A stretch of DNA of 62,901 nucleotides from Fidelibacterota bacterium (GCA_028101095.1 JAOHKG010000003.1:1-62901); one strand, 5' to 3'. Positions 26,432 to 60,985 are shown, counted from the stretch's first letter. The notes: generated by a model not told the origin, from the sequence alone. Numbers and translations: made by a program.

Positions 26432-26432
<1 letters not shown>

Positions 26433-27529: not shown

Positions 27530-27547
27530 CTAGTTTTATCTTTTTCT

Positions 27548-37014: not shown

Positions 37015-37015
37015 C

Positions 37016-40195: not shown

Positions 40196-40197
40196 GG

Positions 40198-42426: not shown

Positions 42427-42446
42427 TGTGGACAACTTGTGGATAA
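42427..42446. promoter_or_regulatory. Two tandem DnaA boxes overlapping the dnaA start codon
   Basis: TGTGGACAA (42427-42435, one mismatch) and TGTGGATAA (42438-42446, perfect reverse complement of TTATCCACA). They are 11 bp apart and in the same orientation. Confidence 0.6.
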
Positions 42447-43800
42447 CAATATAAACAACCACGTTTCTCTGTGGAACTTGGTATATGAAAAACTGAAAGA
42501 ATTGCTTCCGGGGCACGCCATTAACACGTGGTTTGAGCCGTTAGTTCCCATTACGATAACAGATGAAGAGTTGGTAATAGAGGTGCCAAATCAATTTTCT
42601 TACGAATGGATAGACTCTCATTATCAAAAAAACCTGGTAGACGCAATTGGAGTAGTTACTGAAAACCAAATATCTTATCGTTTTATTGTTTCTGCGAAGG
42701 GGCAAAAAAAGCAAAAAGAGGAGTCTGAGTCTTATAAAAAAGTAGAAAAAGTAGTAGAACCCGCCCCAAACAACCTTAATAAGACATACACCTTCAAGTC
42801 TTTTATTAAAGGAGCCAATAATGAATTCGCTAAGTCAGCGGCACAGTCTGTTTCTGAATCTCCAGGAAAAAATTCGTTCAACCCTTTAATCATTTATGGT
42901 GGCGTAGGTCTAGGGAAGACACATTTGATTCATTCTATCGGAAATAAAATACATGAGAAGAACCCACGGTCCAAAGTTGTTATAGTTACAAGTGAAAAGT
43001 TTACATTAGACTTTGTCAACAGTTTACGAAAGAATAGAACAATAGAGTTTGCACAACAGTATAGAAATGCGGATGTTTTGTTAATTGACGATATTCAATT
43101 CTTTAGGGGAAAAGAACAAACCCAAGAACAGTTTTTTCACACTTTTAACGTTTTACAACAAGCTGGAAAACAAATCGTTATGACAACTGATAAATATCCA
43201 GCAGAAATTAAAGGACTTCAAGAAAGACTACTTTCACGGTTTCAATCAGGGTTGTCCGTTGACATACAACCCCCCAATCTAGAAATTAGAATAGCTATTC
43301 TACTAGAGAAGGCTGAACAGAACGGGATACGTTTAGATTATAATATTATTGAGTTCATCGCAAAACATATTAAAAAGAACGTTCGTGACCTCGAAGGTGC
43401 TATTATTAGAATTTTAGCTAAATCATCGTTGATGAACAAAGAAATAGATTTTCAGCTTGTTAAAGAAGTTATTCGTGAAAGAATAGGTTCTAGTTTTAGC
43501 CCAGAACTGAGCATAGAAGACGTTGTAAAAAAGGTATCCGAAATAAGCAATGTTTCAGAAATAGAAATTGTAGGTAAAAGCCGTAAGATGGAAGTTGCTG
43601 AAGCTCGGCAAGTTTCTATGTACTTATGCAGAAAAATAATTGGAACATCTCTTAACAACATCGGTGTCTTTTTCGGTGGAAGAGACCACTCTACGGTAAT
43701 ACATGCTGTGAAAACTATTGATGAGAAAATTATAAATAAAAAACATATTAAAGAGCAAATAGAGTCAATTAAACAAGAGTTAGATTTTTCCCTTGCATGA
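42439..43800 (+). CDS. dnaA: Chromosomal replication initiator DnaA
   Basis: Walker A GGVGLGKTHL, DDIQF, and C-terminal DNA-binding HSTVIHA segment. GTG start. Confidence 0.95.
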   Translation: MDNNINNHVSLWNLVYEKLKELLPGHAINTWFEPLVPITITDEELVIEVPNQFSYEWIDSHYQKNLVDAIGVVTENQISYRFIVSAKGQKKQKEESESYKKVEKVVEPAPNNLNKTYTFKSFIKGANNEFAKSAAQSVSESPGKNSFNPLIIYGGVGLGKTHLIHSIGNKIHEKNPRSKVVIVTSEKFTLDFVNSLRKNRTIEFAQQYRNADVLLIDDIQFFRGKEQTQEQFFHTFNVLQQAGKQIVMTTDKYPAEIKGLQERLLSRFQSGLSVDIQPPNLEIRIAILLEKAEQNGIRLDYNIIEFIAKHIKKNVRDLEGAIIRILAKSSLMNKEIDFQLVKEVIRERIGSSFSPELSIEDVVKKVSEISNVSEIEIVGKSRKMEVAEARQVSMYLCRKIIGTSLNNIGVFFGGRDHSTVIHAVKTIDEKIINKKHIKEQIESIKQELDFSLA

Positions 43801-44394: not shown

Positions 44395-45153
44395 ATGGTC
44401 GGAAAAGAATATCTAAATAAATTTCATCCAAAACCTTCTTTCGTTAGAAGGCAAGTTGGGTATATTGCCTTACTCATTGGCTGTGTTGTTGCAAAAATTG
44501 TTGTTCGTGGAAAGTGGCATTTACCTAAAAAAAAAGGTTTTATAATTGCGTCTAACCATTTTAGTATTTTAGATCCACCCTTTTTCAAATATGCCATTCA
44601 AAAACCAATAAACTTCCTAGCCGCAAGTGACCAAGAAGTAAACGGGGCTTTTGTCTGGGCGCTCCACCTTTATGGTTTTATTCCTATAGACAGAGAAAAC
44701 CTTGCGCCTTCAACTATTAAAAAAGCAAAAAAAGTTTTAAAAAATGGAGAAATTTTAGGGATTTTTCCAGAAGGAACAACAACCTCACCTGTTTTAAAAA
44801 AACCTAAAAATGGAGCGGTTTTTTTATCAACGGTTGAAAAAGCACCAATTGTTCCAATTTCAATCTATGGAGCAGAAACGATATGGCAAGATATTTTTAA
44901 AGGAATTCGGCCCAGGGTATATATAAATATTGGGAAGCCTTTTGGGCCCTTCGATATAAGGGGGACTAAAAGTGAAAAATTAATTAAAACAGAGTCTGTC
45001 GGGTCAGAAATGGCTGCAAGGATTGCATCGCTATTACCTAAAAGCAAAAGAGGGGAGTATAAAAATGACATTAGAATTAAAAGATATCAAAAAGAAAACA
45101 AGATAGTTCCGGCAGATGCTATAATTAGTCCTTATTATGACCCGTTATTATAA
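44395..45153 (+). CDS. Lysophospholipid (1-acylglycerol-3-phosphate) acyltransferase family protein
   Basis: HX4D block NHFSILD and FPEGTT block. Confidence 0.75.
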   Translation: MVGKEYLNKFHPKPSFVRRQVGYIALLIGCVVAKIVVRGKWHLPKKKGFIIASNHFSILDPPFFKYAIQKPINFLAASDQEVNGAFVWALHLYGFIPIDRENLAPSTIKKAKKVLKNGEILGIFPEGTTTSPVLKKPKNGAVFLSTVEKAPIVPISIYGAETIWQDIFKGIRPRVYINIGKPFGPFDIRGTKSEKLIKTESVGSEMAARIASLLPKSKRGEYKNDIRIKRYQKENKIVPADAIISPYYDPLL

Positions 45154-46003
45154 AATATATACCAAATAAAATAAACCCACCTCCAATTACAGCTTCTAAC
45201 GGAAGTTCCTCTGAAAAAAGAATAAAACCAAAAACTGATGCTATTAATGGTTCACCCAAAGGCACGGAAGCTACAGCCGTTGGTGATAAAAATTTTATTG
45301 AATAATTTAAAAGGTTGTGACCCAATATAGAGGGAACAAAGCCGAGAAAAAGAAGCCAGATAAATTGTTCTTTTTTAAAGCTCAGTAGGTCATCTCCTGT
45401 AAGTAAAGCTAATAAAGCAATTGTAATTGAAGCGATAAGAAAGAGAGTTCTTCCATAGGTTGTGTTTTCAGTGTTTTTTCTGATTTTTGCTGCGAATATA
45501 TATGTTACCGCAATACACATACCGCTTAAAAGAGATAGAAAGTTTCCATATAATAACTTCGTATCAAGATTTATGCTTTGTCCTTGAACAATTAAAAGAC
45601 CAATCGTAGAAATACTAAGACCCCAATAAACTTCTTTCTCAAATTTTGTACCCTTTAAGAAAGCTACAAGTGTTGTAAAAAAAGGCCCCGTTGTTGCCAA
45701 TAAAGTAGCATTTGCAATAGAGGTGTTTCTCACCCCGAGAAAAAAGAATGAAAAATGAAGACCTAGACTTATTCCTGCAATTAAAATTCTCTTTTTATTG
45801 GTTCTTGATAAAAAAGATGGTTTTTTTGATAGGCTATATATCCACAAAAAACTACTCGCAAGAAGCATTCTCCAAAAAGCCAGCGTTAAAGCAGGGACAG
45901 TTGCTACATATCTAATGACCAGTGACGTTGAGCTTACCGATATTAAAGCAATGGTGAGTAAAAGATAGAGTTGAGTTGAAAACTTTTTATTCCGGGAAAT
46001 CAT
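45125..46003 (-). CDS. EamA/DMT family transporter
   Basis: 292 aa, 10 TM segments, two EamA-like halves. Confidence 0.75.
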   Translation of the reverse strand: MISRNKKFSTQLYLLLTIALISVSSTSLVIRYVATVPALTLAFWRMLLASSFLWIYSLSKKPSFLSRTNKKRILIAGISLGLHFSFFFLGVRNTSIANATLLATTGPFFTTLVAFLKGTKFEKEVYWGLSISTIGLLIVQGQSINLDTKLLYGNFLSLLSGMCIAVTYIFAAKIRKNTENTTYGRTLFLIASITIALLALLTGDDLLSFKKEQFIWLLFLGFVPSILGHNLLNYSIKFLSPTAVASVPLGEPLIASVFGFILFSEELPLEAVIGGGFILFGIYFIITGHNKD

Positions 46004-47375
46004 TTAAAATAGAAACAATGCAAGATGTTAGTTTTTTTGCATAAGGTATATGTAAAAATTCATTTGGCCCATGTGCGTTTGACTCTGGTCCCAATACACC
46101 CGTTATAACAAATTGAGCTTTTGGAAATTGATCTCCAAGCATCGCCATAAATGGAATAGTTCCACCCTCACCCATACTAGATGGAGGGTTTTTGAAATAA
46201 GTATTTGAAGCTGAACGTATTGCACTTTCAAGCCAAGGAGACATTGGTGGCGCGCTCCAACCGGAAGCAGGCTCTTCAAACTCTATTGAAACCTTTGCAT
46301 TGTAAGGAGGATTATCAGTAAGGGCTCTTTTAAGAGCTTCCTGAGCTTTATTTTGGTCAACCAATGGTGGAATTCTCATTGAGAGCTTTAAACTTGTATA
46401 AGGTCTTAAAACATTACCCGCATCTTTAGAACTCGGTAAACCATCTGCACCAACAATAGACAAAGCCGGTTTCCAGGTTGTTCTGAGATGACCTTCTATC
46501 GGGTTATCTGTGGAGGGAGAAACAGGAAAACTTTGATGTTCTTCTAAAATAGCAACCAACTGCACCACACCATCCCTTATGTGCGCCGGAATATCTGTTT
46601 TTAATTCGTCTAATAAAATTTCACCAGTGTTTTCATCTTCTATCCTTGATAAAAGTTGTCGTATTATTCTAAAAGAGGAAGGTATATATCCGCTTATTCC
46701 AGAGTGCATACCTTCATTAAGAACCTCAACTTTTAGCGTTCCACCAATTAAACCCCTCAAAGAGTTTGTTGTCCAAAAGCGCTTGTAATCTTCTGTTCCA
46801 GAGTCCAGGCAAACAACTAAATTTGGTTCCCCAATTAAATCAGAACAAAGCTCCATATAGTGTGGAAGGTCTGGAGATCCGCTTTCTTCACAAAACTCAA
46901 TTAAAACTAAAATTCGAGGTAAGCGACAATTGTTTTTTTGTAATGTTTTTATAGCACATAGCGACGCAAACAGAGCATAACCATCATCAGCGCCACCACG
47001 ACCATAAAGTTTTTCATCAATTAATACCGGCTTCCAAGGACCCTTATCATTATCCCAACCTTCCATTTCAGGCTGTTTATCTAAATGGCCATACATTAAA
47101 ACATTGCCGCTCTTTTCACCTGGTATATCAATTAAAATTATAGGAGTTCTTCCGTCTGATTCTTTAATTGATAAAGTAGCATTCTTTGGTAAATGCTTTT
47201 TTGTCCAATCCGCAGCAAGCTCAAGAACCTTATCCATATGTCCGTTTGCTTTCCAGTTTTTATCAAAGGAGGGAGACTTGTTTGGGATTTTTATATATTC
47301 AGTTAACGTTGGGGTAATATGAGTGTCCCAAAACGAATCTACTTCTAGTTGAATTTTCTTATTGTCTATTTTCAT
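45987..47375 (-). CDS. M20 family metallopeptidase (dipeptidase-like)
   Basis: YGHLDKQP and GRGGADDGY metal-ligand blocks, 462 aa. Confidence 0.8.
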   Translation of the reverse strand: MKIDNKKIQLEVDSFWDTHITPTLTEYIKIPNKSPSFDKNWKANGHMDKVLELAADWTKKHLPKNATLSIKESDGRTPIILIDIPGEKSGNVLMYGHLDKQPEMEGWDNDKGPWKPVLIDEKLYGRGGADDGYALFASLCAIKTLQKNNCRLPRILVLIEFCEESGSPDLPHYMELCSDLIGEPNLVVCLDSGTEDYKRFWTTNSLRGLIGGTLKVEVLNEGMHSGISGYIPSSFRIIRQLLSRIEDENTGEILLDELKTDIPAHIRDGVVQLVAILEEHQSFPVSPSTDNPIEGHLRTTWKPALSIVGADGLPSSKDAGNVLRPYTSLKLSMRIPPLVDQNKAQEALKRALTDNPPYNAKVSIEFEEPASGWSAPPMSPWLESAIRSASNTYFKNPPSSMGEGGTIPFMAMLGDQFPKAQFVITGVLGPESNAHGPNEFLHIPYAKKLTSCIVSILNDFPE

Positions 47376-47381
47376 TTTATT

Positions 47382-48659
47382 TTAACCTGTTATATTTTTA
47401 TAAATTCTTCCATTTTTCATCACAAAAAAAGTTTTTTGTAATAAAGAAATATCATCAAGGGGGTTTCCTTTTACAGCAACAATATCAGCAATTTTTCCAA
47501 TTTCTAAAGAGCCTAAATCAGTTTCAACTCCCAAAAGCTTAGCGGAGTTTATTGTTGCAGATTTAATTGCATCAAGAGGTTTCATTCCCTGCTCTACCAT
47601 GTAAACAAATTCTTTTGCATTTTCGCCATGAAGAGAAACACCTGAATCTGTTCCAAATGCAATTTTTACATTTCCCTCTAAAGCCTTTTTGAATGATTTT
47701 TTAATTTTAGGACCAATTAGTTCAGCTTTTTTTCGGATTAACTCTGGGTAATACCCAACATCTTTAGCTTTTGTAGAAACAAATTCCCCCGCTGATATAG
47801 TTGGAACATAATAAGTCCCGTATTCTTTCATTAACAATAGTGATTCTTGGTCCATTAATGTTCCATGCTCTATAGACCTAACACCAGCACGAACAGCTCT
47901 TTTTATACCTTCTGGACCATGAGCATGAGCTGCAACATGCATGTTATAATCTGTTGCAGTTTCAACAATAGCTCGTATTTCTTCTTCGCTGAACTGAGGG
48001 TTTTGACCACTTTTCCCAAGACTAAGAACGCCCCCGGTAGCTGTAATTTTTATTAGATCAGAACCTCTTTTATATTGATGTCGCACAGCCTTAGCTGCCT
48101 CGATCGCACCATTGATTACTCCAGAGGAGGGGCCGGGATCACCCATAAGTTCATATTTCATTCCGTTTGTTGGATCGGCATGACCACCAGTGGTTGCAAT
48201 TGCTTGACCTGCGCTAAATATCCTAGGTCCGGGAAGTAAGCCGTTTTTTATTGCATCTCGTAGCGAGTTATTAATTGGTCCCCCCAAGTCTCGTACAGTA
48301 GTAAAGCCAGCAAACAATGTTTTTTCAGCAAAAATTATGGATTGATATGCATAGTCATCTAAGTTCTTTGTATACCTCTCTAAATACTTTTTTTTGTTTG
48401 ATTCACCAGAAAGGTGTGTGTGCATATCCATTAATCCGGGAAGAACAGTATACTCATTCAAATCAATTAAAACATCATCTGGTCCGGGGTTTGTATACCC
48501 TTCAGCAATATCAATTATTCTATCTTTATCAATGAAAATTGAAACAACTTTTGATATGGGTTTTTCTGATCCGTCTATTAAAACGCCACAGTGTAATATT
48601 ATGACTTGTGAAAACAGAGAGTGGAAAATAAAAAAGAAGAGGGTGAAACTTTTGGTCAT
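47382..48659 (-). CDS. Secreted metal-dependent amidohydrolase
   Basis: Signal-like N-terminus, DMHTHL, AHAHG and FGTDSG blocks of the amidohydrolase superfamily. Confidence 0.8.
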   Translation of the reverse strand: MTKSFTLFFFIFHSLFSQVIILHCGVLIDGSEKPISKVVSIFIDKDRIIDIAEGYTNPGPDDVLIDLNEYTVLPGLMDMHTHLSGESNKKKYLERYTKNLDDYAYQSIIFAEKTLFAGFTTVRDLGGPINNSLRDAIKNGLLPGPRIFSAGQAIATTGGHADPTNGMKYELMGDPGPSSGVINGAIEAAKAVRHQYKRGSDLIKITATGGVLSLGKSGQNPQFSEEEIRAIVETATDYNMHVAAHAHGPEGIKRAVRAGVRSIEHGTLMDQESLLLMKEYGTYYVPTISAGEFVSTKAKDVGYYPELIRKKAELIGPKIKKSFKKALEGNVKIAFGTDSGVSLHGENAKEFVYMVEQGMKPLDAIKSATINSAKLLGVETDLGSLEIGKIADIVAVKGNPLDDISLLQKTFFVMKNGRIYKNITG

Positions 48660-48683
48660 CAGGTTGAGAATAGGGTATTTAGG

Positions 48684-49490
48684 TTAGCTTTTATTTTTAT
48701 TTATTTCTCGAACAACTTTTTTTTGTAAAAAATTTTTAAAAAAAGTGTTTAAAAAAGGAATTAAACTTAGTTTTTTAGGAACATAGATTGTTTTTTTATC
48801 TTTTTTTATACCATCTATAATACTTTTTACACAAGACTCTAGGCTAACGGATTGACTTGTATGTTTTCTAGATTCATCTTTATGTTTTTTTCCATCAGCT
48901 CGGAAAGAGTTTCCTCTTAGATTTGTCCCTCTAATCCAACTTAAAACAGCTTCTAGTATGGTAATTTCTTCTTTGTTTTCCATTGAAATAGTTTCTAAAA
49001 AACCATGAAGGGCATGCTTTGAAGCAACATATCCGGAATGGTTTGGAAAACCCATAAGAGCTTGAGCGGTAGAACAACTAACAATTTTACCCTTTGATTT
49101 TTTCAAAAAAGGAATTGCGGCAAAGCAACAGTTTACAGACCCTAAATAGTTTGTTTTCATCAGGTCTGAAAAAAAGCTGGGGTCTGTTATTTCATCAAAC
49201 TTCGCCCACATACTTATACCCGCATTTAAGACTAAGCCATCGATTTGCCCAAATTTTTCGATAGTCCTGTCTATTAAACTTTGACATTGTTTTAGATTTG
49301 TTATATCTGTTTGAACATAAATGGCTTCTCCACCAGAAGTATTAATTTTTTCAGAAACTTTTTTAAGTTTATGTTCGGTTCTTGCAGCGCAAACAACTTT
49401 GGCACCCTCTTTTGACAGCTGCTTAGATAATTCCTCCCCAATACCTGAAGAAGCCCCTGTTATAATGAATACTTTATTCTTTAGAAGCAT
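48684..49490 (-). CDS. Short-chain dehydrogenase/reductase; candidate acyl/alkyl-DHAP reductase
   Basis: TGASSGIGEE, NAG and YVASKHAL (YxxxK) identify an SDR. The specific role is inferred only from operon context. Confidence 0.8.
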   Translation of the reverse strand: MLLKNKVFIITGASSGIGEELSKQLSKEGAKVVCAARTEHKLKKVSEKINTSGGEAIYVQTDITNLKQCQSLIDRTIEKFGQIDGLVLNAGISMWAKFDEITDPSFFSDLMKTNYLGSVNCCFAAIPFLKKSKGKIVSCSTAQALMGFPNHSGYVASKHALHGFLETISMENKEEITILEAVLSWIRGTNLRGNSFRADGKKHKDESRKHTSQSVSLESCVKSIIDGIKKDKKTIYVPKKLSLIPFLNTFFKNFLQKKVVREINKNKS

Positions 49491-49504
49491 ATTTATATAA
49501 AACT

Positions 49505-51262
49505 CTAATCGTTTACAATATTGTTGTCTACTCCAAAAATGTTTTTTGGATCCTGATCTTTTTTAATTCCTTTTATCAATGATATACTGCCATTGGAGAT
49601 TGTATCTTTCATAAAGTCTTTTCTTAATTTACCAACTCCATGATGATGTGATATTGAACCACCGTTCTTTATAAAGTTAGCCCTCATAGCATATTCAATC
49701 TCTGTAAAAACATCTTCGGGTCTCTCTATTCCATCGTAACACATTGCAATTGTGTTATACATGCAAACACCGGTGTGATATATTTTTGAAATTCGAGAGG
49801 TGAAAAACGGCTTACCGGGAAGATTATGTTTTTTATGTAGTTCGTTTAAGAGTTTATGGGCCTCTTCTTTCACCTGATTTATCTTAGACCAGGGAACAGA
49901 GGTTTCCATTGTTTCACCTAAGATGTTTTGTGTAAATATCAGTTCTCTTATATAGGCAATCACCATTGTTGCAAGGTACCCGCTCTTTCCGGTACTCTCA
50001 CCGGCAACAAAACCATTATGTTTTTTTGAAAGTGATTTTAAGTTTTTCAATTGCTGTTTTACTTCTTGAGAAGAACCTTCAATCTTAAATGTAGCAGCCG
50101 TAAACTTTTCGGGATCAAACTTTTTTATATTAAAGAGATAGTATTTGGTTAACTTATCTAAAAAGCCACCGACACCCTCTTTTTTTTCTTTTAGAGAACT
50201 TCCTAATCTAATTTGAAGGTTATCAGCTAATCGGGAGCTTGCGGGAACCATATTTGAATGATATAAGTCATACATAAATGAAACTCCGCTTTCCCAACTA
50301 TAAAATAAAATAGATTCATATGTAGACTTTTCTGGTAACCGATGGACTTTTAAAGTTGCTTTTGTTATTATTCCAAGGTTCCCCTCTGAACCAAATAAAA
50401 GGTTTTGAGCTTTTATTCCAATTGAAGCTCTTGTCAACGGTTCTATTTGGTTTATAGTTCCAGTTGGTGTAATCATTGTTATATTTTGAACAATATCTTC
50501 GATATTTCCATATCTATGTTTTTTCATACCCGCGGCATTGGTAGAAATCCATCCACCTACGGTTGAGAACTCATAGCTATCTGGTTCATGTCCAGCTGTT
50601 AGACCCTTATCGTTGAGTTGTTTCTCTAATTCTTTTCCAGTTATACCAGAATAAACAGAGACCATTAGATTTTTTTCATCAATACTTTCAATTGAGTTCA
50701 TCCTTCTGGTGTCTACGGAAACAATCATTCTTTTTTCTTTTTTTGGTGGTCTTAGTGCGTTTGTTACATTTGTACCGCCACCATAAGGAATAAGACAAAC
50801 ATCATGTTTCTTTGCAAGTTCGACCAAGCGAATTGTTTCTTCTTCATTCTCTATGTAAAAAACTAAATCTGTAAATTTTTCTAGTTTATTATATAAAACT
50901 TTATATACTTCGTCTGTGGAGTGTTGTCCATGACTATGAAGAAGACGCTCATTGTTTTCGATTGAGTATCTGTCTTCATCAAAAGTTTCCTTCATTTCTT
51001 TCACAAACATTTCGTTAATGTTCGGTTTTTCGATATATTTAACTTTTAGTTCTTTAACTTTTGGTTCTTTTTCTATTTCTATTTCAAGTATACTTTCAAC
51101 GAAAGGAATAAAACTTGTCAGTTTTTTACCACAAACAGGATATCTGTTTCCTGAGAATGTTACCGCTTTATTATCTTCTATGATAAAAGCGGAATCCTTA
51201 TAACCCCACTTGTGTCCCCAGTTCTCATCGTTCACACCAAAAAATTTTTTATTATCACTCAT
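49505..51262 (-). CDS. Alkyldihydroxyacetonephosphate synthase-like FAD oxidase (AGPS/ADPS homologue)
   Basis: WGHKWGYKDS N-terminal block, FAD/PCMH PYGGGTNV, GHEPDSYEFSTVGGWISTNAAGMKKHRYGNIEDIV, and HHH loop SISHHHGVGKLR. The track's longest ORF starts at 51298; Met at 51262 leaves a 4-nt gap to the upstream stop. Confidence 0.8.
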   Translation of the reverse strand: MSDNKKFFGVNDENWGHKWGYKDSAFIIEDNKAVTFSGNRYPVCGKKLTSFIPFVESILEIEIEKEPKVKELKVKYIEKPNINEMFVKEMKETFDEDRYSIENNERLLHSHGQHSTDEVYKVLYNKLEKFTDLVFYIENEEETIRLVELAKKHDVCLIPYGGGTNVTNALRPPKKEKRMIVSVDTRRMNSIESIDEKNLMVSVYSGITGKELEKQLNDKGLTAGHEPDSYEFSTVGGWISTNAAGMKKHRYGNIEDIVQNITMITPTGTINQIEPLTRASIGIKAQNLLFGSEGNLGIITKATLKVHRLPEKSTYESILFYSWESGVSFMYDLYHSNMVPASSRLADNLQIRLGSSLKEKKEGVGGFLDKLTKYYLFNIKKFDPEKFTAATFKIEGSSQEVKQQLKNLKSLSKKHNGFVAGESTGKSGYLATMVIAYIRELIFTQNILGETMETSVPWSKINQVKEEAHKLLNELHKKHNLPGKPFFTSRISKIYHTGVCMYNTIAMCYDGIERPEDVFTEIEYAMRANFIKNGGSISHHHGVGKLRKDFMKDTISNGSISLIKGIKKDQDPKNIFGVDNNIVND

Positions 51263-51983
51263 ATAACGATCTCGCTTTGTCTTTAATTTTTTGTTCAAGT
51301 TCTAATGTCATTTTATCTACAGCTTCAGAAATTTCTTCTTTTGAAGCATTGCTACTGTTTAAAAACGATTTAGGGTATATAGGTTCAAGAATGTATACAA
51401 TAATTCTAGAAGGTCTCATTAATATTTGATCTTTTGGCCATGCTTTGTGTGATCCGAAAATAACGGCTGGCAGAATTGGTTTATTAAGGCTAATAGCAAA
51501 GCTTGAGGCTCCTTTTTTAAACGCAGTTATATTTCCGGGTTTGCCTCGGGTACCCTCAGGAAAAAAAATTAAACACCTTTTATTATAATCCATAAACGAT
51601 TGACATAACTTAAGAGTATCTTTTATGGATAGTTGCCTCACGCCGTCTATTTTGCGATCTATTGGAATTAAGTTCATAACAGTGTTGATTAAAAATTTTC
51701 TAATCCAACTATCAAACCAATAATCTTTTGCAGCAAGCATTCCAAAATGATTAAAACTTTTTTGTGCAGAGGCAGATAAGAGAGCTACATCCATGTGGCT
51801 ATTGTGGTTACTACAGAAAATATACGATGAGTCGGGAATGTTTTCACGTCCGTAGACTTTTAAAGGTGTGTAGAAAATAAAAACAAGTTTACTGTATAAG
51901 TAAAAAAGCGTTTTCCAAATTTTAAAATAGAAAGGTTGATTCCCCAGCAAATATTTAAACTTGGGGTTTTCTAATACTCCCAT
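51255..51983 (-). CDS. HX4D glycerolipid acyltransferase; candidate DHAP acyltransferase
   Basis: NHNSHMD and FFPEGTRG blocks. The track's longest ORF starts at 52049; Met at 51983 leaves an 8-nt gap after the upstream stop. Confidence 0.75.
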   Translation of the reverse strand: MGVLENPKFKYLLGNQPFYFKIWKTLFYLYSKLVFIFYTPLKVYGRENIPDSSYIFCSNHNSHMDVALLSASAQKSFNHFGMLAAKDYWFDSWIRKFLINTVMNLIPIDRKIDGVRQLSIKDTLKLCQSFMDYNKRCLIFFPEGTRGKPGNITAFKKGASSFAISLNKPILPAVIFGSHKAWPKDQILMRPSRIIVYILEPIYPKSFLNSSNASKEEISEAVDKMTLELEQKIKDKARSLYE

Positions 51984-51991
51984 GAAAGGAT

Positions 51992-53152
51992 TTATTTTCT
52001 TCCATATTTCATATGTGCGTCCGTCCAAGTGTGTGAACCAATAGCACAAATTAGAGAAATCTCTAGAGCCAATGCGGAACCAGCAATTATTTCTGCTAGT
52101 TTCCTTGAGGAATGTTCTCCTTCATTACAGCCAAGAAGTTCTAAGTTTTTGTTTTGCATTTTAAGGCGGGTTCCGCCACCAATTGTTCCAACTGTTAATG
52201 ATGGAAGTGTTAGTTTAAACTTCAGCCCGTCTTCTCTTTTTTCTATACCAATATGAGCGATGCTGTTTTCTGCTACACATGCAGCATCTTGTCCAGTCGC
52301 CAAATAAATAGCTGTTAATGCATTAGAGACGTGCAGTCCGTTTCCATGCGTTCCCGCCATGCTAGATACAATGGGGAAAAAACTCCAGGAATCAAATAAA
52401 ATATCAGGATCCATTTTTAAAACTCTTTTCATCACACTATTCTTAATGGTTGTTTCTGCCGTAACCGCATGTCCGCGACCGAGTAGCATATTTCGAACAG
52501 AGGCTTTTTTATCACTGTTTAAATTTGATTCTAAAATATAATTCTGATTTGTTTTCTTCTGAATAAATTCGCAAGCTACCTGGGCTGCAAGTGTAACCAT
52601 ATTCTGCCCAGCTGCGTTGCTCGTGTTTAATACAATATCGAGTATTACATAGTTTTGTACTGTATATTGATCTATCCTTAAAACTTTACCGTGGCTTGTA
52701 GTGCTTTCGGCAACATTTATAATTTCTTTTTCATTCGCTTTCACCCAGTTCTGAAACTTCATGCTTTCATCAATATTGTCAAAAATAAAAACTGGAGCAC
52801 GAGAAAGCTCTTGTCTAAAGTGGCGCGCAACAGTTCCACCGCTAATATTTGCAGCATAAATACCACGATTCATTGACATCGACAAAGTTCCTTCAAGAGT
52901 ACAAAGAGGTATACAAAACTCACCCTGAGCATAAGCACCATCTAGAGAAAGTGGTCCGACAACAGACATAGGAACCTGCATAAAACCAACATGGTTTTCA
53001 ATAATTCCCTGAAGGTCTTCTGCGTTATCCCGACTTGTGTCATCAATTTCTACACCAGAAAACTGTTTAACCCATTCTTTTCTAGCATCTGTATCTTCTT
53101 GTTTGTAGCCCCTGGGAATAGAAACATTTCGTTCATTGTTTTGATCAGACAT
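51992..53152 (-). CDS. HMG-CoA reductase-like NAD(P)H thioester reductase (catalytic domain only)
   Basis: ENHVGFMQVPMSVVGPL, TLEGTLSMSMNRG, SDKK, GQDAAC, TVGTIGGGT and C-terminal His, laid out as in class I HMGR. The cofactor block reads NAAGQNM instead of DAMGxNM. Confidence 0.75.
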   Translation of the reverse strand: MSDQNNERNVSIPRGYKQEDTDARKEWVKQFSGVEIDDTSRDNAEDLQGIIENHVGFMQVPMSVVGPLSLDGAYAQGEFCIPLCTLEGTLSMSMNRGIYAANISGGTVARHFRQELSRAPVFIFDNIDESMKFQNWVKANEKEIINVAESTTSHGKVLRIDQYTVQNYVILDIVLNTSNAAGQNMVTLAAQVACEFIQKKTNQNYILESNLNSDKKASVRNMLLGRGHAVTAETTIKNSVMKRVLKMDPDILFDSWSFFPIVSSMAGTHGNGLHVSNALTAIYLATGQDAACVAENSIAHIGIEKREDGLKFKLTLPSLTVGTIGGGTRLKMQNKNLELLGCNEGEHSSRKLAEIIAGSALALEISLICAIGSHTWTDAHMKYGRK

Positions 53153-53307
53153 ATTTAAGTTTTTTCTTTGATTTAATTAAAAGTTAACATTTATCGATTC
53201 TTTTACCCAACAGAGCACTTCACGATATATAAATATACAGGAATGAATAAAGATTTTCCAACATAAATACGGGTTATAAAAAACAGTTTCAAGGTTAAGA
53301 ATTAAGG

Positions 53308-54348
53308 TTAATACCTTCTGTTTTTATTTTGATTTTTATCAAAAACAGGTTCTCCTGTTTCTGGGTCAAACTCTACACCCGAGGACTTTTTTTTAATAGG
53401 GATTCCTGTTTCTGGATTAAACTCTAACCCCGAAGGTGGCTTTTTAATAGGGTCTCCCGATTCTGGATCAAACTCTAACACCGGGTTTATTTTAGGTCTT
53501 GGCAGTGGAGTAAGTTGGTTTCCCTTTTTTAAACTAGTGTTAAAAAAGTTAAAACCCAAGCTAGCACTTATTGTCGGGTATTTTTCCGCCACACTAATAT
53601 CATATACACCTTTTAAATTCAAAAACTTAGAACTAAGTAGAGAAGCATCTATTTGAAGAGTAGTAGAAGTGTTCATTCCAAAAAGGCTAAAAATAGAACT
53701 GAAATTTTCTACTCCGAGAGTAATTCCAACCCCCTTCATTAAAAAGTTATAAGAAGCTCCTTGATACCTCTCCGGTTCCTGTGAACCGTAGGTAAAGATA
53801 CTGTGTAACCCTCCATAAAAAGGGTTTTTCTTAGACGTTGTTGTTTTAATGGATTGAATTGAATGAATCGCGGTACCAATTTCAACATTTTTATTTAGTT
53901 CAATATTTATTCCAGCTTTGAAGGGTCTCCGGTTTTTTGAATTTATATATTTTTTGTACTCGAGACCAACATGCCACGCGAATGGACTCCCGCCCCCTAC
54001 ACCAACTCCACCAGATAAACCAGCTTCTGAATTTTTATACCCCTTTAATATTGACATTTCTCCTCTTAAGCCTGCTAATCCAGTATTGACACTTAATCCT
54101 TGATATGAACCATTATTCCAATAATAATTATAAGAATAATTTTCACTGGGAGATATATACCCAAGATTTCCTTCGGGAGCGATGTTCAAAGACCCATTAA
54201 AGGATGTTGCTTTTTCCCCTTCTTCCAATATTTTTGACGTTCTGATATGGGAATTATTATAACAACCAGAAAGTATAAACAAAAAAAGCGGAAAAAGAAG
54301 AATCCTTTTTATCAACTTAGCTGGCAAAAATAATATATGAAACCACAT
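53308..54348 (-). CDS. Hypothetical lipoprotein, Gly-rich barrel-like, with C-terminal EFDPETG repeats
   Basis: Lipobox LSGC, alternating Gly/aromatic strands, three tandem repeats at the C-terminus. Confidence 0.6.
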   Translation of the reverse strand: MWFHILFLPAKLIKRILLFPLFLFILSGCYNNSHIRTSKILEEGEKATSFNGSLNIAPEGNLGYISPSENYSYNYYWNNGSYQGLSVNTGLAGLRGEMSILKGYKNSEAGLSGGVGVGGGSPFAWHVGLEYKKYINSKNRRPFKAGINIELNKNVEIGTAIHSIQSIKTTTSKKNPFYGGLHSIFTYGSQEPERYQGASYNFLMKGVGITLGVENFSSIFSLFGMNTSTTLQIDASLLSSKFLNLKGVYDISVAEKYPTISASLGFNFFNTSLKKGNQLTPLPRPKINPVLEFDPESGDPIKKPPSGLEFNPETGIPIKKKSSGVEFDPETGEPVFDKNQNKNRRY

Positions 54349-55228
54349 AGACTACGAACCCTGGAATTATAAGATATTCAGGTTTTCGCTTAAGGGTTAT
54401 AGACGGTCCAAACATTTCTATATATTCAAGATAGTTCAATGGATTTGCGATAGCCTCATCATATTCTTGTTGTGATATTATGTTTGTTTCTAGCAATTCT
54501 ACTGGTGACCGGCCATCAACAATTTTTACGAATTGTTTTTTTGTTATTTGTCCGGAGTAATATCTTTGATATACCCCTTCTCGAGGTTTTCTTTTACCCT
54601 TTTTAGTTTTTTCAATAAAATGTTTATTCTCTAATATTTTTTCTATCTCATCTTGAACCAACGCACGGATTTCTTTCTCTGTTAGATAGCGTTTTTCGGA
54701 TTCTTCTTTTTTTACGTCATCAATTTTGGTGTCTAAACCTGGAAAGTCTGGGTTTAATATGTTTGTTTTTGGTACAACTTCTTTGCTTGGGCTCTCAATC
54801 AAAGGTTTGGTTGTTTTAGTTATGTTTTCAACGTCTTCTTTTGGTTTTTTTTGGATTACAGTCTTTTTTTCAGCTTCTTTCTGCTTCTTTTCTCGAAGTA
54901 AAGTTGTATTAAAAACATCTGGGATGTTTGCTACCCATTCACCGGTCATTGGATCCAGCTCAGGTGGGAAAAGAATTTCTTCTGAAAGAGTGTTTTCATC
55001 GCAATTATAAGATAGAATTAAGCCTGAATTAGATTTCACAATTTCAATACTTTCGCAAGAGAAATATTCAATTTTATCATCGATTAAAACGTGAATGTGG
55101 TTCATATATGTACCCAAAAACTCACCACGAACTGTTTCCTTTTTTTCTTTAAAGAAAAAATTAACTTCAGTAGCAAACCCAATGCTTAGATTGAAAAAAA
55201 TAAAAATAAGCCACTTTGTTTTAACCAT
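54317..55228 (-). CDS. Hypothetical envelope protein (signal peptide, Lys/Glu-rich linker, C-terminal TM anchor)
   Basis: 303 aa. N-terminal hydrophobic segment, small beta motif, DPMTGEW, charged coil, terminal helix YLIIPGFVVYVVSYIIFAS. Confidence 0.55.
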   Translation of the reverse strand: MVKTKWLIFIFFNLSIGFATEVNFFFKEKKETVRGEFLGTYMNHIHVLIDDKIEYFSCESIEIVKSNSGLILSYNCDENTLSEEILFPPELDPMTGEWVANIPDVFNTTLLREKKQKEAEKKTVIQKKPKEDVENITKTTKPLIESPSKEVVPKTNILNPDFPGLDTKIDDVKKEESEKRYLTEKEIRALVQDEIEKILENKHFIEKTKKGKRKPREGVYQRYYSGQITKKQFVKIVDGRSPVELLETNIISQQEYDEAIANPLNYLEYIEMFGPSITLKRKPEYLIIPGFVVYVVSYIIFAS

Positions 55229-55694
55229 ACGTCTTGCCTGAAATATCTATTTTTAAAGGTTTATAAAAAGTATTTCTTCCAAGTAAAGCACCCAAAGTTG
55301 CCCCAACAAAAGTAAAAACTTTTTCGTGTTGATCACTAAAACTTTCTTTGGAAACAATAAGGGTTAAATATCCAATAGCACCCCCAAAAACGGATACACT
55401 TGTTGCCAAAAAAAACTCTGCTTTTTGAGGGACAATAAGTACGTAATCAATATTATTGTGGCTAAAGAGATTGTGGTTTATTCCATCCGAAACAATAAAA
55501 CTTTCAGGTGTTACAGTGACGAGTTCTCCCTGAACCTCCATCTTACCGGGTCCAACAAAACGAATTGTCTTTCCAGAATAGTTGTTTTTGAAATTTTCTA
55601 AGCGCGTAATTTTTACAGACTCAGAACGCAAAGCGGTCTGGGAAAAGATAAGTGACATAAAAACTATCGCAATAAATATTATTTTTAAAGTCAT
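55221..55694 (-). CDS. Hypothetical small envelope protein with glycine-zipper helices
   Basis: 157 aa. Signal peptide, small beta motif, GGAIGY and GATLGALLG glycine zippers. Confidence 0.55.
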   Translation of the reverse strand: MTLKIIFIAIVFMSLIFSQTALRSESVKITRLENFKNNYSGKTIRFVGPGKMEVQGELVTVTPESFIVSDGINHNLFSHNNIDYVLIVPQKAEFFLATSVSVFGGAIGYLTLIVSKESFSDQHEKVFTFVGATLGALLGRNTFYKPLKIDISGKTYG

Positions 55695-55705
55695 ACTAAG
55701 CTTTT

Positions 55706-57214
55706 CTAAAACTCAAAAAACTCCCAATAAAAATCTATATAAGGTTGTTGAAAATGAAGACCAATCTTAAAAGTTTCATTGAGGGTGTATTGTAAGCCAA
55801 AATCAAAATCCACCATACTTACGCTTCCAGCTGCAGACTCTAAAGAAAAAGCGGCTGTTCCATCATCGCCTAAATAATCTGAGGCTAAATCAGAAAAGTT
55901 CATTGCTCGGTACCCATTGTCTATCCATGCAGACCCTAAAAACTTTAAATCTTTTCTTAAGTCATATTCTAGAGAAGCCCAGGCGCGAAAAGGAACTTTA
56001 TATAGTTTTTCCGTACTCCAGCTTACAACACGTTCGCTTCCACCAATATTAACAGAAGGTTTAAGAAACTCATTTCTATCCAGAAAAGCATTTGAGGCTT
56101 TTATTCCTGTTGACCAACCAATTTTTCCTCTTCCAGTTGGATTAACCCTCCTTGATGAAAAAACAAGATAAGCTTCTATGTAGAAACGATCAGCATTGAC
56201 AGATTCATTTGTTACATCCGTTACACTAATATCTTTCATGGAGCCTTTAAGTTCATTTAATGGAATCGGTTCGCTTTCACCTTCTGCATTTTCACTATCA
56301 ATAGTTATAGCATGCGCATACCTAGAGACAATACTTTCAGCTGGATATTTTCTATGAAGACCAAGCCCCCAAGATGCTGCAACTTCTTTTTGAGCTGATT
56401 TTTTATGATAAAATCGCATTCTAGGATGAAGGTTTAGGTCGTTATTAAAATTTGAACCAATTTTAGAAGTTATCATAAACCTATCTGTTAATCCATACCC
56501 AATAGACAAGCCACTAAGATAAAAAGTGTTTCCTGCTAGTGGAAAAGCTGTAGGGTCTAAAAAAACATTTATCAGTTTAGATTCACCTTGGTAAAACTTT
56601 GTTCTTTCTTCAGATTTTCTATCTAAAACTCCACCATGGTAGCGTTTCATTTTTTGAATATCTCTTTTCTGAACAACAGCATCGCCGTATTGTGTTCTTA
56701 TAACAAACTCTTCTGCTGTTTCGCCCAGAACAGAACCAATAAAAAACTCACCGTTTTTATTCGTTATTTCTGCTGATTCTTCAAGAAACTGCTCAGAGGG
56801 AATGTTGAATGTTCCACTTGAAGTCTTTAATCTAATAACTTCATTTTCAATTGATAAAATCTCACCCTCTCTAATGGTTCCATCTAAAAAATGAAACCGT
56901 TTTTGCATACCAGTTTCTAGAGAAGTAGCAACCGTTAAATCTCTTTTTATTGTTTTTGTTGTTTCTTTTTCTACTGGTTTTTTAATGCTTTGGCTTTGAA
57001 AGCCTTTTATTACTTCTGCGCCTTGCATGCGGTTCAAATCGTCAAGAGGCGCACCATATTGACTCAGCAAATGGTTGTACAAGTCTTGACTAGAAAAACC
57101 TGCGCTAGCAGAAAGAGATTCTATTGCCGTTTTTTGACCAGGGAGAATGTTTCCCGACTGACTTAATAAAAAAGATGAAAGAAAAAATACCAATATAGAA
57201 TAGATTGGTTTCAT
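55706..57214 (-). CDS. Hypothetical outer-membrane beta-barrel protein with N-terminal soluble repeats
   Basis: 502 aa. Signal peptide, two small beta motifs, about 300-aa alternating-strand region ending ...YWEFFEF (terminal Phe). Confidence 0.6.
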   Translation of the reverse strand: MKPIYSILVFFLSSFLLSQSGNILPGQKTAIESLSASAGFSSQDLYNHLLSQYGAPLDDLNRMQGAEVIKGFQSQSIKKPVEKETTKTIKRDLTVATSLETGMQKRFHFLDGTIREGEILSIENEVIRLKTSSGTFNIPSEQFLEESAEITNKNGEFFIGSVLGETAEEFVIRTQYGDAVVQKRDIQKMKRYHGGVLDRKSEERTKFYQGESKLINVFLDPTAFPLAGNTFYLSGLSIGYGLTDRFMITSKIGSNFNNDLNLHPRMRFYHKKSAQKEVAASWGLGLHRKYPAESIVSRYAHAITIDSENAEGESEPIPLNELKGSMKDISVTDVTNESVNADRFYIEAYLVFSSRRVNPTGRGKIGWSTGIKASNAFLDRNEFLKPSVNIGGSERVVSWSTEKLYKVPFRAWASLEYDLRKDLKFLGSAWIDNGYRAMNFSDLASDYLGDDGTAAFSLESAAGSVSMVDFDFGLQYTLNETFKIGLHFQQPYIDFYWEFFEF

Positions 57215-58077: not shown

Positions 58078-58485
58078 ATGGGGGCAATTCTATTTGCCGG
58101 TTTAATTAGGGTCTCATTTGTATTGAGTGAGGGTAAAAGCAATGCCCCCAAAAAATTAGAGTTAGAAGATAAAAAAGGAGCAAGAAGTTTAATTAAAATT
58201 AATAATCTCCGAGATGAGAATGTAATGAAAAAAATAAATAGAATAGGAATCCGATTCTCAGTTTGATCCTCTTGTAGGAATCATTGGTGGTATGGTGTAG
58301 AATATTTTATTTCTGAGCAATTTTCTTTGGGCGGTGAAGTCTCAATGAACTTTGTAATGAACGAATGGAAAAATGAAAACCAAGACGAATACGATTATGA
58401 TGATAACGAAAATATATCAGAGGACTGTAGGTTAACTCCTGGAGTAGTTCTTATTCAATTTATTTTTAATTATTATTTTGATTGA
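58078..58485 (+). pseudogene. Possible small outer-membrane barrel remnant split by an in-frame TGA
   Basis: The 62-aa ORF ends at TGA 58264-58266. The same frame continues ...WWYGVEYFISEQFSLGGEVSMNF...GVVLIQFIFNYYFD, and its TGA overlaps the next ATG (TGATG). Confidence 0.3.
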
Positions 58486-60334: not shown

Positions 60335-60985
60335 ATGAAGACATTTATAAGAACACTTAAGCAAAAAACTCCAATACACAAAAACTATTATTTCGCAAAG
60401 TTGAGAAATGATGAATTAACGCTGGAAGAGTTTCAAAAATCACAACTTAACTTTTTCGATGCAGTTCTTTCATTTACAAAACCAATGTTTATAATCTCAA
60501 GCAAATTAGATTCGTACGAACAGAGACTGTTAGTTTTAGAAAATATTTTCGAAGAACATGGTAATGGTGACATAACAAAAAATCATGGAAACACATTTGA
60601 GGAGTATTTAATTTTACTTGGAGTAAATAAAAAAGAGATAAAAAACCGTAGGGTAAATAAGTCATCACAAAATTTTAATCTTTCTTTGATAGAATACTCC
60701 CAAAAAGAATCTACGTACTTTAGTTTAGCAATGATGGGAATCATTGAAGAAAGGTATTCTGAAATGTCAAAACTAATATCAGAAAAATTATTAAAAAACA
60801 AATGGCTAACAGAGGAAACGCTAGTCCACTATAAAGTTCATGAAAAATTAGACATTGAACACGCAGAGTCTTTTTATCATTTAATAAGTTCTAAGTGGTT
60901 AGATAAAAACATACGAAATGATATAAAAAAAGGGCTTCTGTTCGGAAATAATTTGATTTTAAATTTATATACAGATCTGCTTTGA
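60335..60985 (+). CDS. Heme-oxygenase-like diiron oxidase/oxygenase (HDO; CADD/PqqC/TenA-like fold)
   Basis: FEEHGNGDITKNH, IIEERY and HEKLDIEHAESF give a 3-His/3-carboxylate-type ligand pattern. Confidence 0.7.
   Translation: MKTFIRTLKQKTPIHKNYYFAKLRNDELTLEEFQKSQLNFFDAVLSFTKPMFIISSKLDSYEQRLLVLENIFEEHGNGDITKNHGNTFEEYLILLGVNKKEIKNRRVNKSSQNFNLSLIEYSQKESTYFSLAMMGIIEERYSEMSKLISEKLLKNKWLTEETLVHYKVHEKLDIEHAESFYHLISSKWLDKNIRNDIKKGLLFGNNLILNLYTDLL

Follow-up and report, generated by a model that had tools for sequence, protein, structure and literature searches.

The bacterium Myxococcus xanthus is already known to have an operon centred on an alkyl-DHAP synthase (AGPS) of the animal type, MXAN_1676-MXAN_1675-MXAN_1674 (PMC9131029, PMC13012113). 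Its AGPS is about 42% identical to the human enzyme, and the operon carries the same four activities that we propose for a gene cassette of a marine SAR406/Marinimicrobia bacterium: an alcohol-forming reductase, an acyltransferase, AGPS and an NAD(P)-dependent reductase. However, AGPS comes first in the M. xanthus gene order, and the alcohol-forming step there falls to 'FARAT', in which a Rossmann-fold FAR (PF07993) and a GNPAT-like acyltransferase are joined in one polypeptide. The cassette described here has an unrelated HMGR-fold reductase instead, and its small PlsC-type acyltransferase is a separate protein encoded by the next gene; Pfam found no PF07993 protein within the cassette. The last genes also differ, encoding an extended SDR (NAD-dependent epimerase/dehydratase) in M. 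xanthus and a classical SDR in our locus.

The four reactions proposed for the cassette are the same as those of the animal peroxisomal pathway (FAR1/2, GNPAT, AGPS and DHRS7B/PexRAP). Animal AGPS is clearly orthologous to the protein in our locus, sharing Arg419, Tyr578, the HHH loop and an N-terminal domain with a 17-residue insert, and in animals alkyl-DHAP reduction is performed by an SDR, as we propose here. The animal genes, however, are dispersed and their products organelle-targeted; the reductase is a FAR rather than an HMGR-fold enzyme, and GNPAT is a protein of ~680 aa.

FcrA of Natronomonas pharaonis and 'Ca. Promineifilum breve' belongs to a family of HMGR-class-I-like fatty acyl-CoA reductases characterised in 2025 (PMC11948995). 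Its signature is an acidic residue in place of Ser684, a bulky aromatic residue in place of Leu862 and loss of Lys735 (generally to small residues), with the catalytic residues retained. The protein in our locus has the same fold, catalytic residues and replacements (Ser684→Glu, Leu862→Trp, Lys735 lost). Characterised FcrA, however, carries an N-terminal lipid-binding 'Lad' domain and acts with WS/DGAT in wax-ester synthesis (PMC11948995), whereas our protein is without the N-terminal extension, has Phe at the Lys735 position and belongs to a subgroup whose genes directly adjoin AGPS. P. breve has no such fixed cassette, its AGPS gene lying nine genes away from FcrA.

Layout of the locus

The window, i.e., the whole stretch of DNA analysed, comprises 62,901 nt from Fidelibacterota bacterium (GCA_028101095.1 JAOHKG010000003.1:1-62901). 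The cassette (shown as 48,684-53,152) consists of four co-directional minus-strand genes (53152..48684) in the order HMGR-like reductase, PlsC-type HX4D acyltransferase, AGPS and classical SDR. The features are as follows.

51992..53152, minus strand: FcrA-like (HMG-CoA-reductase-fold) predicted fatty acyl-CoA reductase, 386 aa (Pfam HMG-CoA_red, 333 bits)
51255..51983 (ORF 51255-52049), minus strand: PlsC/LPLAT-family acyltransferase, 242 aa from Met23 (PF01553, 74 bits)
49505..51262 (ORF 49505-51298), minus strand: animal-type AGPS (EC 2.5.1.26), 585 aa from Met13 (FAD_binding_4 and FAD-oxidase_C)
48684..49490, minus strand: classical SDR, 268 aa (adh_short, 158 bits)
53153..53307, minus strand: intergenic spacer of 155 nt, 5' of the first gene; probable operon promoter region
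44395..45153, plus strand: second PlsC-family acyltransferase, 252 aa (PF01553, 82 bits; TIGR00530, 89 bits)

All four co-directional ORFs of the original prediction were present on the minus strand, and the motifs quoted for them all appeared in the translations (WGHKWGYKDS, GHEPDSYEFSTVGGWISTNAAGMKKHRYGNIED, SISHHHGVG and the HX4D motif HNSHMD). Gaps of 4-14 nt had also been claimed when internal Met starts were used. This held at two junctions, with 8 nt between the stop of the HMGR-like gene and the acyltransferase start (Met23, ATG at 51983), and 14 nt between AGPS and the SDR. However, there is no gap between the acyltransferase and AGPS genes: with AGPS starting at Met13 (ATG at 51262), which gives the 585 aa length of essentially all homologs, the two genes share 8 nt at the acyltransferase stop (ATGAGTGA).

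The 155-nt spacer is the sole sizeable non-coding gap flanking the cassette. It contains one weak sigma-70-like match (53261..53232), and the promoter scan overall scored no better than with shuffled sequence.

Recurrence of the gene order

The four-gene order was found at 14 of 17 Marinimicrobia species-level genome loci, the other three being cut by contig ends; at every locus not truncated in this way the cassette was unchanged, and it was also present on 26 metagenome contigs. In Marinimicrobia, it lies a few kb from dnaA, in a housekeeping region of streamlined genomes. Ten FcrA-like genes from outside the lineage of the window were examined. For nine of them, an AGPS-type FAD gene is either the immediate neighbour or separated by a single gene, while the sequence around the tenth ends after the acyltransferase; the full four-gene order is present at seven of the ten loci, with unrelated flanks. 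Cassettes with different flanks occur in Verrucomicrobiales and Ignavibacteriales, and probably in KSB1, where the contig is truncated. An order that recurs in this way in Marinimicrobia loci, on metagenome contigs and in other phyla is far from anything expected by chance.

The AGPS in the cassette is of the animal type in Marinimicrobia and of the Dictyostelium type in the other phyla. The Dictyostelium-type cassettes (Verrucomicrobiales, Ignavibacteriales and others; loci L018-L024 and L026) have the same order and tight spacing, and their proteins are 41-52% (FcrA-like), 32-44% (acyltransferase) and 31-39% (SDR) identical to those of the window. Their AGPS, however, is of the other subtype: it is ~30% identical to the window AGPS and scores 455 bits against Dictyostelium ADPS, its best solved match, versus 312 bits against the guinea pig enzyme. 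The acyltransferase or the SDR is missing from some variants, and in Verrucomicrobia there is an additional acyltransferase gene. Other bacteria with an animal-type AGPS have a PF07993 Rossmann-type FAR beside it, not an FcrA-like gene, and M. xanthus MXAN_1676-1675-1674 conforms to this pattern (PMC9131029). Since one or other of these reductases is found next to AGPS, the neighbouring position appears to be a slot for an alcohol-forming reductase.

AGPS, the acyltransferases and the SDR

The cassette AGPS has a VAO/PCMH-type FAD-binding domain (PF01565, 119 bits) and a C-terminal cap (PF02913, 102 bits). With phmmer, it matched guinea pig AGPS (4BBY) over query residues 29-592 at 446 bits (E = 2.5e-132; 40% identity) and Dictyostelium ADPS (2UUU) at 283 bits (E = 6e-83), whereas the next-best VAO-family match, LctD, reached only 93 bits (2e-25). 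The AGPS-specific N-terminal block also aligns, the 17-residue insert being common to the cassette and guinea pig enzymes. Equivalents of Arg419, Tyr578 and His615-617 (the HHH loop; guinea pig numbering) are kept, and the Y578F mutant entry 4BCA aligns with the Tyr of the cassette protein at that position. Every related cassette encodes an AGPS with these residues, which are invariant in 121 homologs. The gap between 446 and 93 bits, with the conserved catalytic residues, rules out a glycolate or D-lactate oxidase, as the original prediction had maintained. By family, the FAD enzyme can thus be assigned with solid confidence as a true alkyl-DHAP synthase, of predicted activity. The wider claim, of an AGPS-based, eukaryote-style ether-lipid operon, agrees with all of the computational tests that were run, among them this identity and the neighbourhoods, in which the genes proved to be co-conserved within Marinimicrobia and across phyla.

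We put at roughly three in four the probability that the four genes form one operon making 1-O-alkyl-sn-glycerol-3-phosphate, the precursor of plasmanyl ether glycerolipids; for such a route we infer what the reductase, acyltransferase and SDR act on, as well as which lipid is made in the end. The FcrA-like enzyme would convert long-chain acyl-CoA, with 2 NADPH, to fatty alcohol, and the PlsC-type acyltransferase would convert DHAP to 1-acyl-DHAP. AGPS would then form the ether bond (1-acyl-DHAP + fatty alcohol → 1-O-alkyl-DHAP + fatty acid), in an FAD-dependent, overall non-redox step that would not require oxygen. Finally, the SDR would use NADPH to reduce the keto group of 1-O-alkyl-DHAP, giving 1-O-alkyl-sn-glycerol-3-phosphate, and a general PlsC, possibly that encoded at 44395-45153, would acylate the sn-2 position.

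The translation of the operon acyltransferase contains FPEGTRG (the EGTR phosphate-binding block) as well as the HX4D motif. The protein resembles PlsC, not any known DHAP acyltransferase: it matches TIGR00530 (AGP_acyltrn), and its best (and only) solved-structure match is the 1-acyl-G3P acyltransferase PlsC of T. maritima (5KYM, E = 3e-16). In Marinimicrobia, Verrucomicrobiales, Ignavibacteriales and others, its gene lies between the FcrA-like gene and AGPS, and because it sits between an alcohol-forming reductase and AGPS we propose, from this gene context, that the enzyme acts on DHAP. Alternatively, the pathway could run as proposed but with this enzyme as the sn-2 AGPAT for 1-alkyl-G3P, the acyl-DHAP coming from an unlinked enzyme. 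This is unlikely in our judgement, although it would suit the PlsC and AGP_acyltrn matches, the AGPAT-like domain of myxobacterial ElbD (PMC9131029) and the two variant clusters that are without an adjacent acyltransferase. In verrucomicrobial clusters, one acyltransferase gene precedes AGPS and another directly follows the SDR, which fits two separate acylation steps, and in most Marinimicrobia loci the second PlsC-like gene (44395..45153) is syntenic ~3.5 kb downstream of the cassette. Moreover, AGPS absolutely requires acyl-DHAP, and to our knowledge bacteria otherwise have no dedicated DHAP acyltransferase. The 44395..45153 protein, a possible member of the system, is a candidate sn-2 acyltransferase for 1-alkyl-G3P, or else a housekeeping PlsC; the second verrucomicrobial acyltransferase is just 26% identical to it.

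The SDR scores 235 bits on NF004825, over its cut-off of 215, while its matches among PDB structures were generic. Its translation contains TGASSGIG, LNAG, a Ser...YxxxK catalytic set and an Arg after strand β2, the last being typical of NADP(H)-preferring SDRs. With few exceptions, the loci have this gene as the next one after AGPS, even where AGPS occurs without an FcrA-like gene, and this context leads us to propose an NADPH-dependent 1-O-alkyl-DHAP (and acyl-DHAP) reductase. The product of that step, 1-alkyl-G3P, would be an entry point to phospholipid synthesis, which argues against a second alternative, i.e., that the products are ether compounds other than bulk membrane phospholipids, such as neutral alkyl-diacylglycerols/storage lipids or a scarce signalling lipid (cf. 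TG-1). The window contains nothing that would specify the head group, and FcrA was discovered in the synthesis of a storage lipid, wax ester (PMC11948995). In M. xanthus, moreover, the AGPS route is minor, deletion of the AGPS homolog having lowered ether lipids only slightly, and one of its ether lipids is the neutral signal TG-1 (PMC9131029). Against this, no WS/DGAT-type gene was found in the window or related loci, and the housekeeping site near dnaA in streamlined genomes argues for a constitutive membrane role; we consider this alternative distinctly improbable.

The HMGR-like reductase and the cassette as a unit

The HMGR-like protein retains equivalents of the catalytic residues E559/D690/K691/N755/D767/H866; E87, K215, D289 and H380 (equivalent to Glu559, Lys691, Asp767 and His866) are invariant or nearly so in 120 homologs. 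The HMG-binding positions, by contrast, are altered, S684 to Glu208, K735 to Phe259 and L862 to Trp376 (hHMGR numbering), and this signature (Glu, no Lys, Trp) is held across the 120 Marinimicrobia-type homologs. The spacing of the three residues is identical to that of Glu360/Gly411/Trp528 in N. pharaonis FcrA (PMC11948995), although Phe259 is bulky, unlike the small residues of characterised FcrA. In a neighbour-joining (NJ) tree, which included no named FcrA reference, the protein fell outside the canonical HMGR clade (nine S/K/L-signature sequences, including the solved 6HR7) in 89 of 100 bootstraps. It fell in an AGPS-linked subgroup (weakly supported, 45/100), apart from an N-terminally extended group that presumably corresponds to the Lad-type FcrA assayed in PMC11948995. 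Fusions to fatty-acyl-AMP-ligase and ACP domains occur among its relatives.

Canonical HMG-CoA reductase (EC 1.1.1.34) was rejected as an identity, the score on the HMGR equivalog TIGR00533 being 274 bits against a cut-off of 441.8. That the gene nevertheless encodes a genuine mevalonate-pathway enzyme, its adjacency to AGPS being without functional meaning, is barely credible: public annotations do name orthologs hydroxymethylglutaryl-CoA reductase, and the Pfam match is strong (333 bits) with all catalytic residues present, but the positions that bind the HMG carboxylate (S684 and K735) carry other residues, an FcrA that was assayed failed to reduce HMG-CoA (PMC11948995), no mevalonate-pathway gene lies within the 63-kb window or adjoins the FcrA-like gene at any locus examined, and in several phyla the gene keeps its place next to AGPS while the flanks are unrelated. 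The original prediction had offered no role for the HMGR-like partner. The FcrA signature and the position outside the canonical clade point to the HMGR-like protein as the probable supplier of the fatty alcohol needed by AGPS; with this alcohol source, the cassette would constitute a complete four-step pathway.

The four-gene layout had been put forward as undescribed. Our literature search found no description of the conserved operon, but the claim of novelty was too strong: of 134 Black Sea Marinisomatota MAGs, 49 had been reported to carry Agps homologs (PMC11868695), and a role for FcrA in feeding AGPS or ether-lipid synthesis had been speculated upon (PMC11948995). The cassette is a new variant on a known ether-lipid pathway, its function being predicted. 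More tentatively, and at somewhat less than even odds, the FcrA-like/acyltransferase/AGPS/SDR set may be a self-contained, oxygen-independent ether-lipid cassette, unrecognised as a unit, that occurs in several phyla and belongs to the origin-proximal core of SAR406/Marinimicrobia. For the sole cultured member of the Marinimicrobia, the lipid data are FAME (PMC11652737). If the cassette is active, SAR406/Marinimicrobia, which are very abundant in the deep ocean, would be a major and as yet unassigned source of the 1-O-monoalkyl glycerol ethers that occur in ocean particles and sediments. The occupation of the AGPS slot by either an animal-type or a Dictyostelium-type enzyme would, if true, mean that the AGPSs of eukaryotes go back to two or more bacterial lineages, and not only to myxobacteria.

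The cassette and the predicted functions of its products

Between 48684 and 53152 the minus strand of the window carries four ORFs whose products belong, in order of transcription, to the Pfam families HMG-CoA_red, Acyltransferase (PF01553), FAD_binding_4 plus FAD-oxidase_C, and adh_short. Start codons were chosen from homolog lengths:

53152 (ATG), minus strand, HMGR-like gene
51983 (ATG, Met23 of the ORF), minus strand, acyltransferase
51262 (ATG, Met13), minus strand, alkyl-DHAP synthase (AGPS), giving 585 aa as in essentially all homologs
49490 (ATG), minus strand, SDR

With these starts, 8 nt lie between the first two genes, the acyltransferase and AGPS genes overlap by 8 nt (ATGAGTGA), and 14 nt separate AGPS from the SDR gene. 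The original prediction of four co-directional genes separated by short gaps therefore held for direction and for two junctions, but the remaining junction is an overlap. The first gene is preceded by a 155-nt spacer, and a promoter/terminator scan of 47300-53500 returned match counts equal to those in shuffled sequence.

The FAD enzyme is predicted to be an AGPS. It matched the solved guinea-pig AGPS (4BBY) over residues 29-592, with 446 bits and E = 2.5e-132, and Dictyostelium ADPS (2UUU) with 6e-83, whereas the next VAO-family match, LctD, scored 93 bits. Its score with the glycolate-oxidase model TIGR00387 was 156 bits, below the cut-off of 568. Residues corresponding to Arg419, Tyr578 and His615-617 (guinea-pig numbering) were kept, and were invariant in 121 homologs. 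All of the motifs cited in the original prediction were present. These scores and conserved residues set the protein apart from D-lactate and glycolate dehydrogenases, and a glycolate or D-lactate oxidase can be dismissed on the difference between 446 and 93 bits.

Enzymes of a large group that is sister to class-I HMGR were shown in 2025 to convert C14-C18 acyl-CoA to fatty alcohol (PMC11948995). These HMGR-fold fatty acyl-CoA reductases (FcrA) neither reduce HMG-CoA nor are inhibited by simvastatin; they retain the catalytic residues, have Glu in place of Ser684 (human HMGR numbering) and a bulky aromatic residue in place of Leu862, and lack Lys735 (PMC11948995). In the window protein, Glu208, Trp376 and Phe259 occupy the Ser684, Leu862 and Lys735 positions, with the same spacing as Glu360/Trp528/Gly411 of N. 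pharaonis, and E87, D214, K215, N277, D289 and H380 are retained. The FcrA-type pattern was present in 120 Marinimicrobia-type homologs, and the HMGR equivalog model gave the window protein 274 bits against a cut-off of 441.8 bits. In a tree built by neighbour joining from the best representatives at 50% identity, which contained no named FcrA reference sequence, nine canonical Ser/Lys/Leu sequences, including the solved archaeal HMGR 6HR7, formed a separate clade (89/100 bootstraps), and the window protein grouped among Glu/Phe-type sequences; the clade uniting AGPS-linked FcrA-like proteins had 45/100 support. The supplement of the FcrA paper (PMC11948995) mentions neither Marinimicrobia, AGPS nor reference accessions. 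The signature residues mark the protein as FcrA-type rather than as a reductase of the mevalonate pathway.

Among FcrA-like relatives (P0247, P0251, P0264, P0314; P0260, P0263, P0306) there were fusions to AMP-binding and PP-binding domains (FAAL-ACP), and also to APH/EcKL kinase-like domains. The fusions to fatty acyl-AMP ligase and phosphopantetheine carrier domains argue for fatty acyl thioesters as substrate. A 2026 preprint (PMC13596139) assigns 1-O-alkylglycerol kinase activity to the APH-fold kinase domain of ACAD10, so the kinase fusions may be another link to ether-lipid metabolism.

The cassette acyltransferase has the HX4D and EGTR blocks, and its only solved relative in a PDB search was T. 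maritima PlsC. The SDR has the full classical motif set and passed the generic model NF004825, and its PDB matches were unspecific, i.e., generic SDRs only. Their proposed substrates, DHAP and alkyl-DHAP respectively, are suggested by gene context and by the needs of AGPS.

Conservation of the cassette and probable exchange of its parts

Co-conservation of the four genes, on which the original prediction had depended, was borne out. We recovered 17 species-level Marinimicrobia genomes with the AGPS protein (59-87% identity): 14 had the complete order FcrA-like, acyltransferase, AGPS, SDR, three were cut by contig ends, and none of the 17 provided a counter-example. Sampling from the FcrA side outside the window's lineage yielded ten loci, seven of them with the full order and unrelated flanks:

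L018, L026: Verrucomicrobiales, full order plus a second acyltransferase after the SDR
L019: Ignavibacteriales complete genome CP065001.1, full order
L020, L021, L023: three further contigs, full order
L027: distant 50%-GC Marinimicrobia lineage, full order
L022: variant, FcrA-like, AGPS, SDR
L024: variant, FcrA-like and AGPS only
L025: KSB1 contig, which stops after the acyltransferase

In a metagenome scan, 26 contigs with an AGPS at least 50% identical to that of the window carried the cassette. The fifth gene of the verrucomicrobial cassettes, a second PF01553 acyltransferase, lies directly after the SDR (L018:11425-12081; L026:11477-12136), and together with the first would cover both DHAP and sn-2 acylation.

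Three genes downstream of the cassette, on the same strand, were considered as members and rejected:

47382-48659, minus strand, amidohydrolase
45987-47375, minus strand, M20 peptidase
45125-46003, minus strand, EamA

The amidohydrolase was absent from five Marinimicrobia loci, an extra gene often follows the SDR, and none of the three lies beside the cassette in other phyla. Because they are variable, we regard them as ordinary synteny outside the unit.

The cassette AGPSs compared (window, L018-L024, L026 and L027) comprised two subtypes with reciprocal best matches among solved structures. The AGPSs of the window (49505-51262) and L027 were 40% and 44% identical to the guinea-pig enzyme but only ~30% identical to those of the Verrucomicrobia/Ignavibacteria cassettes, which shared 42-72% identity among themselves. 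PDB scores for the window AGPS were 446 (guinea pig) versus 283 (Dictyostelium), and for the Ignavibacteriales AGPS (L019:8896-10641) 455 (Dictyostelium) versus 312 (guinea pig). A 17-residue N-terminal insert was common to the Marinimicrobia (window) and guinea-pig enzymes and absent from the others. Between the two kinds of cassette, identity was 41-55% for the FcrA-like protein, 32-48% for the acyltransferase and 31-44% for the SDR. The simplest reading of these sequence comparisons is that one AGPS subtype displaced the other inside a conserved operon. The origin of AGPS is not settled in PMC13012113, and the existence of two subtypes matters for the debate on where the eukaryotic ether-lipid pathway came from.

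Animal-type AGPS, i.e., that nearest the guinea-pig enzyme, was also found (39-53% identity) on ~40 metagenome contigs from higher-GC bacteria, and on none of them was an FcrA-like gene present within 5 kb; in many, an SDR followed AGPS. Ten neighbours scanned from these contigs included four Rossmann-type reductases (FARs, PF07993), one of which terminates a PKS-like protein, and one acyltransferase. The AGPS of M. xanthus is likewise accompanied by a fusion of FAR and GNPAT and by an NAD-dependent reductase (PMC9131029, PMC13012113). The slot beside AGPS is thus taken by either of two unrelated, predicted alcohol-forming acyl reductases. This interchange is the strongest argument for the function of the FcrA-like protein, and would represent a clean case of non-orthologous displacement. 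On one metagenome contig (L073:78-7718), the gene for a 1570-aa PKS-like protein (DH-ER-KR-ACP, ending in a PF07993 reductase) immediately precedes those for an animal-type AGPS and an SDR, which suggests that a polyketide-made alcohol feeds AGPS.

Proposed pathway and its significance

The FcrA-like protein would reduce acyl-CoA with 2 NADPH to a fatty alcohol, the acyltransferase would acylate DHAP, AGPS would exchange the acyl group for the alcohol to form the ether bond, and the SDR would reduce the ketone, yielding 1-O-alkyl-sn-glycerol-3-phosphate. Homology, signature residues and gene context are the basis of all these predicted functions. Plasmanyl lipids would be finished by a PlsC and general phospholipid enzymes. 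One candidate is a second PlsC-family acyltransferase, whose gene lies next to ssb and keeps its synteny with the cassette across most Marinimicrobia loci:

44395-45153, plus strand, PlsC-family acyltransferase

Its product could either serve as the housekeeping PlsC or acylate 1-alkyl-G3P at sn-2. No step would require oxygen, which fits lineages also living in oxygen-minimum zones. Since no PEDS1/CarF-like desaturase was seen within the window, alkyl rather than alkenyl ethers would be expected.

AGPS homologs have been counted by BLAST in 49 of 134 Marinisomatota MAGs (PMC11868695), and that FcrA may feed AGPS was speculated in PMC11948995 on the example of 'Ca. Promineifilum', where AGPS lies nine genes from FcrA. 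Reviews place bacterial aerobic ether-lipid/plasmalogen synthesis essentially in Myxococcota (PMC13012113). In the open-access full-text literature we found no account of FcrA-like/acyltransferase/AGPS/SDR as a fixed cassette, of its occurrence in several phyla, or of an AGPS subtype swap. The earlier claim of an undescribed layout may hold for the fixed cassette; AGPS homologs in Marinisomatota and the FcrA-AGPS idea were already published. The IJSEM description of the phylum's only cultured member gives FAMEs only.

If the assignments are correct, a large bacterial group annotated as 'HMG-CoA reductase' would gain a role in supplying fatty alcohol for ether lipids, and AGPS-based synthesis would reach beyond myxobacteria to several phyla via a compact cassette. 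Non-isoprenoid alkyl glycerol ethers are biomarkers in use, and their water-column sources are poorly constrained. Particulate matter from the Atlantic and the Southern Ocean contains 1-O-MAGEs (Hernandez-Sanchez et al. 2014, as cited in PMC5552659), and cassette-bearing SAR406 are a plausible source.

Genomic setting

Close homologs are labelled Candidatus Marinimicrobia/Neomarinimicrobiota, i.e., SAR406; GC content of the window is ~34%. A 7339-bp JGI metagenome contig (L028, Ga0233432_10010786) shows 100% protein identity to the window for all four cassette genes, and thus represents the same population independently sampled. Rfam and tRNA scans across the window gave no matches.

An origin-proximal housekeeping block occupies 21673-43800. 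The sign of the GC skew flips near 40 kb, and only ~5-9 kb separate dnaA from the cassette. Other features of the window are:

436-1119, glycerophosphodiester phosphodiesterase
11097-16440, pyruvate dehydrogenase E1-E2-E3, full set
18253-19155, indigoidine-synthase-A-like gene
21673-28660, minus strand, gyrA, gyrB, recF-like, dnaN
28749-30623, minus strand, GAF-PAS adenylate/guanylate cyclase, between dnaN and SurA-like chaperone genes
33925-41895, minus strand, mfd, mnmG, mnmE, yidC
42439-43800, plus strand, dnaA, with a 543-nt spacer before the gene

Many genes in 1-19155 encode peptide or protein degradation functions (penicillin amidase family, M1, M16, Met-zincin DUF4953 peptidase). Directly upstream of the cassette, 53308-57214 (minus strand) holds four consecutive genes whose products have hydrophobic N-termini; they had no Pfam or NCBIfam match, and several Marinimicrobia genomes have weakly conserved counterparts (28-68% identity). 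At 58482-60985 (plus strand), three genes that overlap or abut encode a DUF3419 protein, of a family that includes the betaine-lipid enzyme BtaA, a 298-aa protein and a heme-oxygenase-like/CADD-family iron enzyme, and may form a small lipid- or metabolite-modifying cluster.
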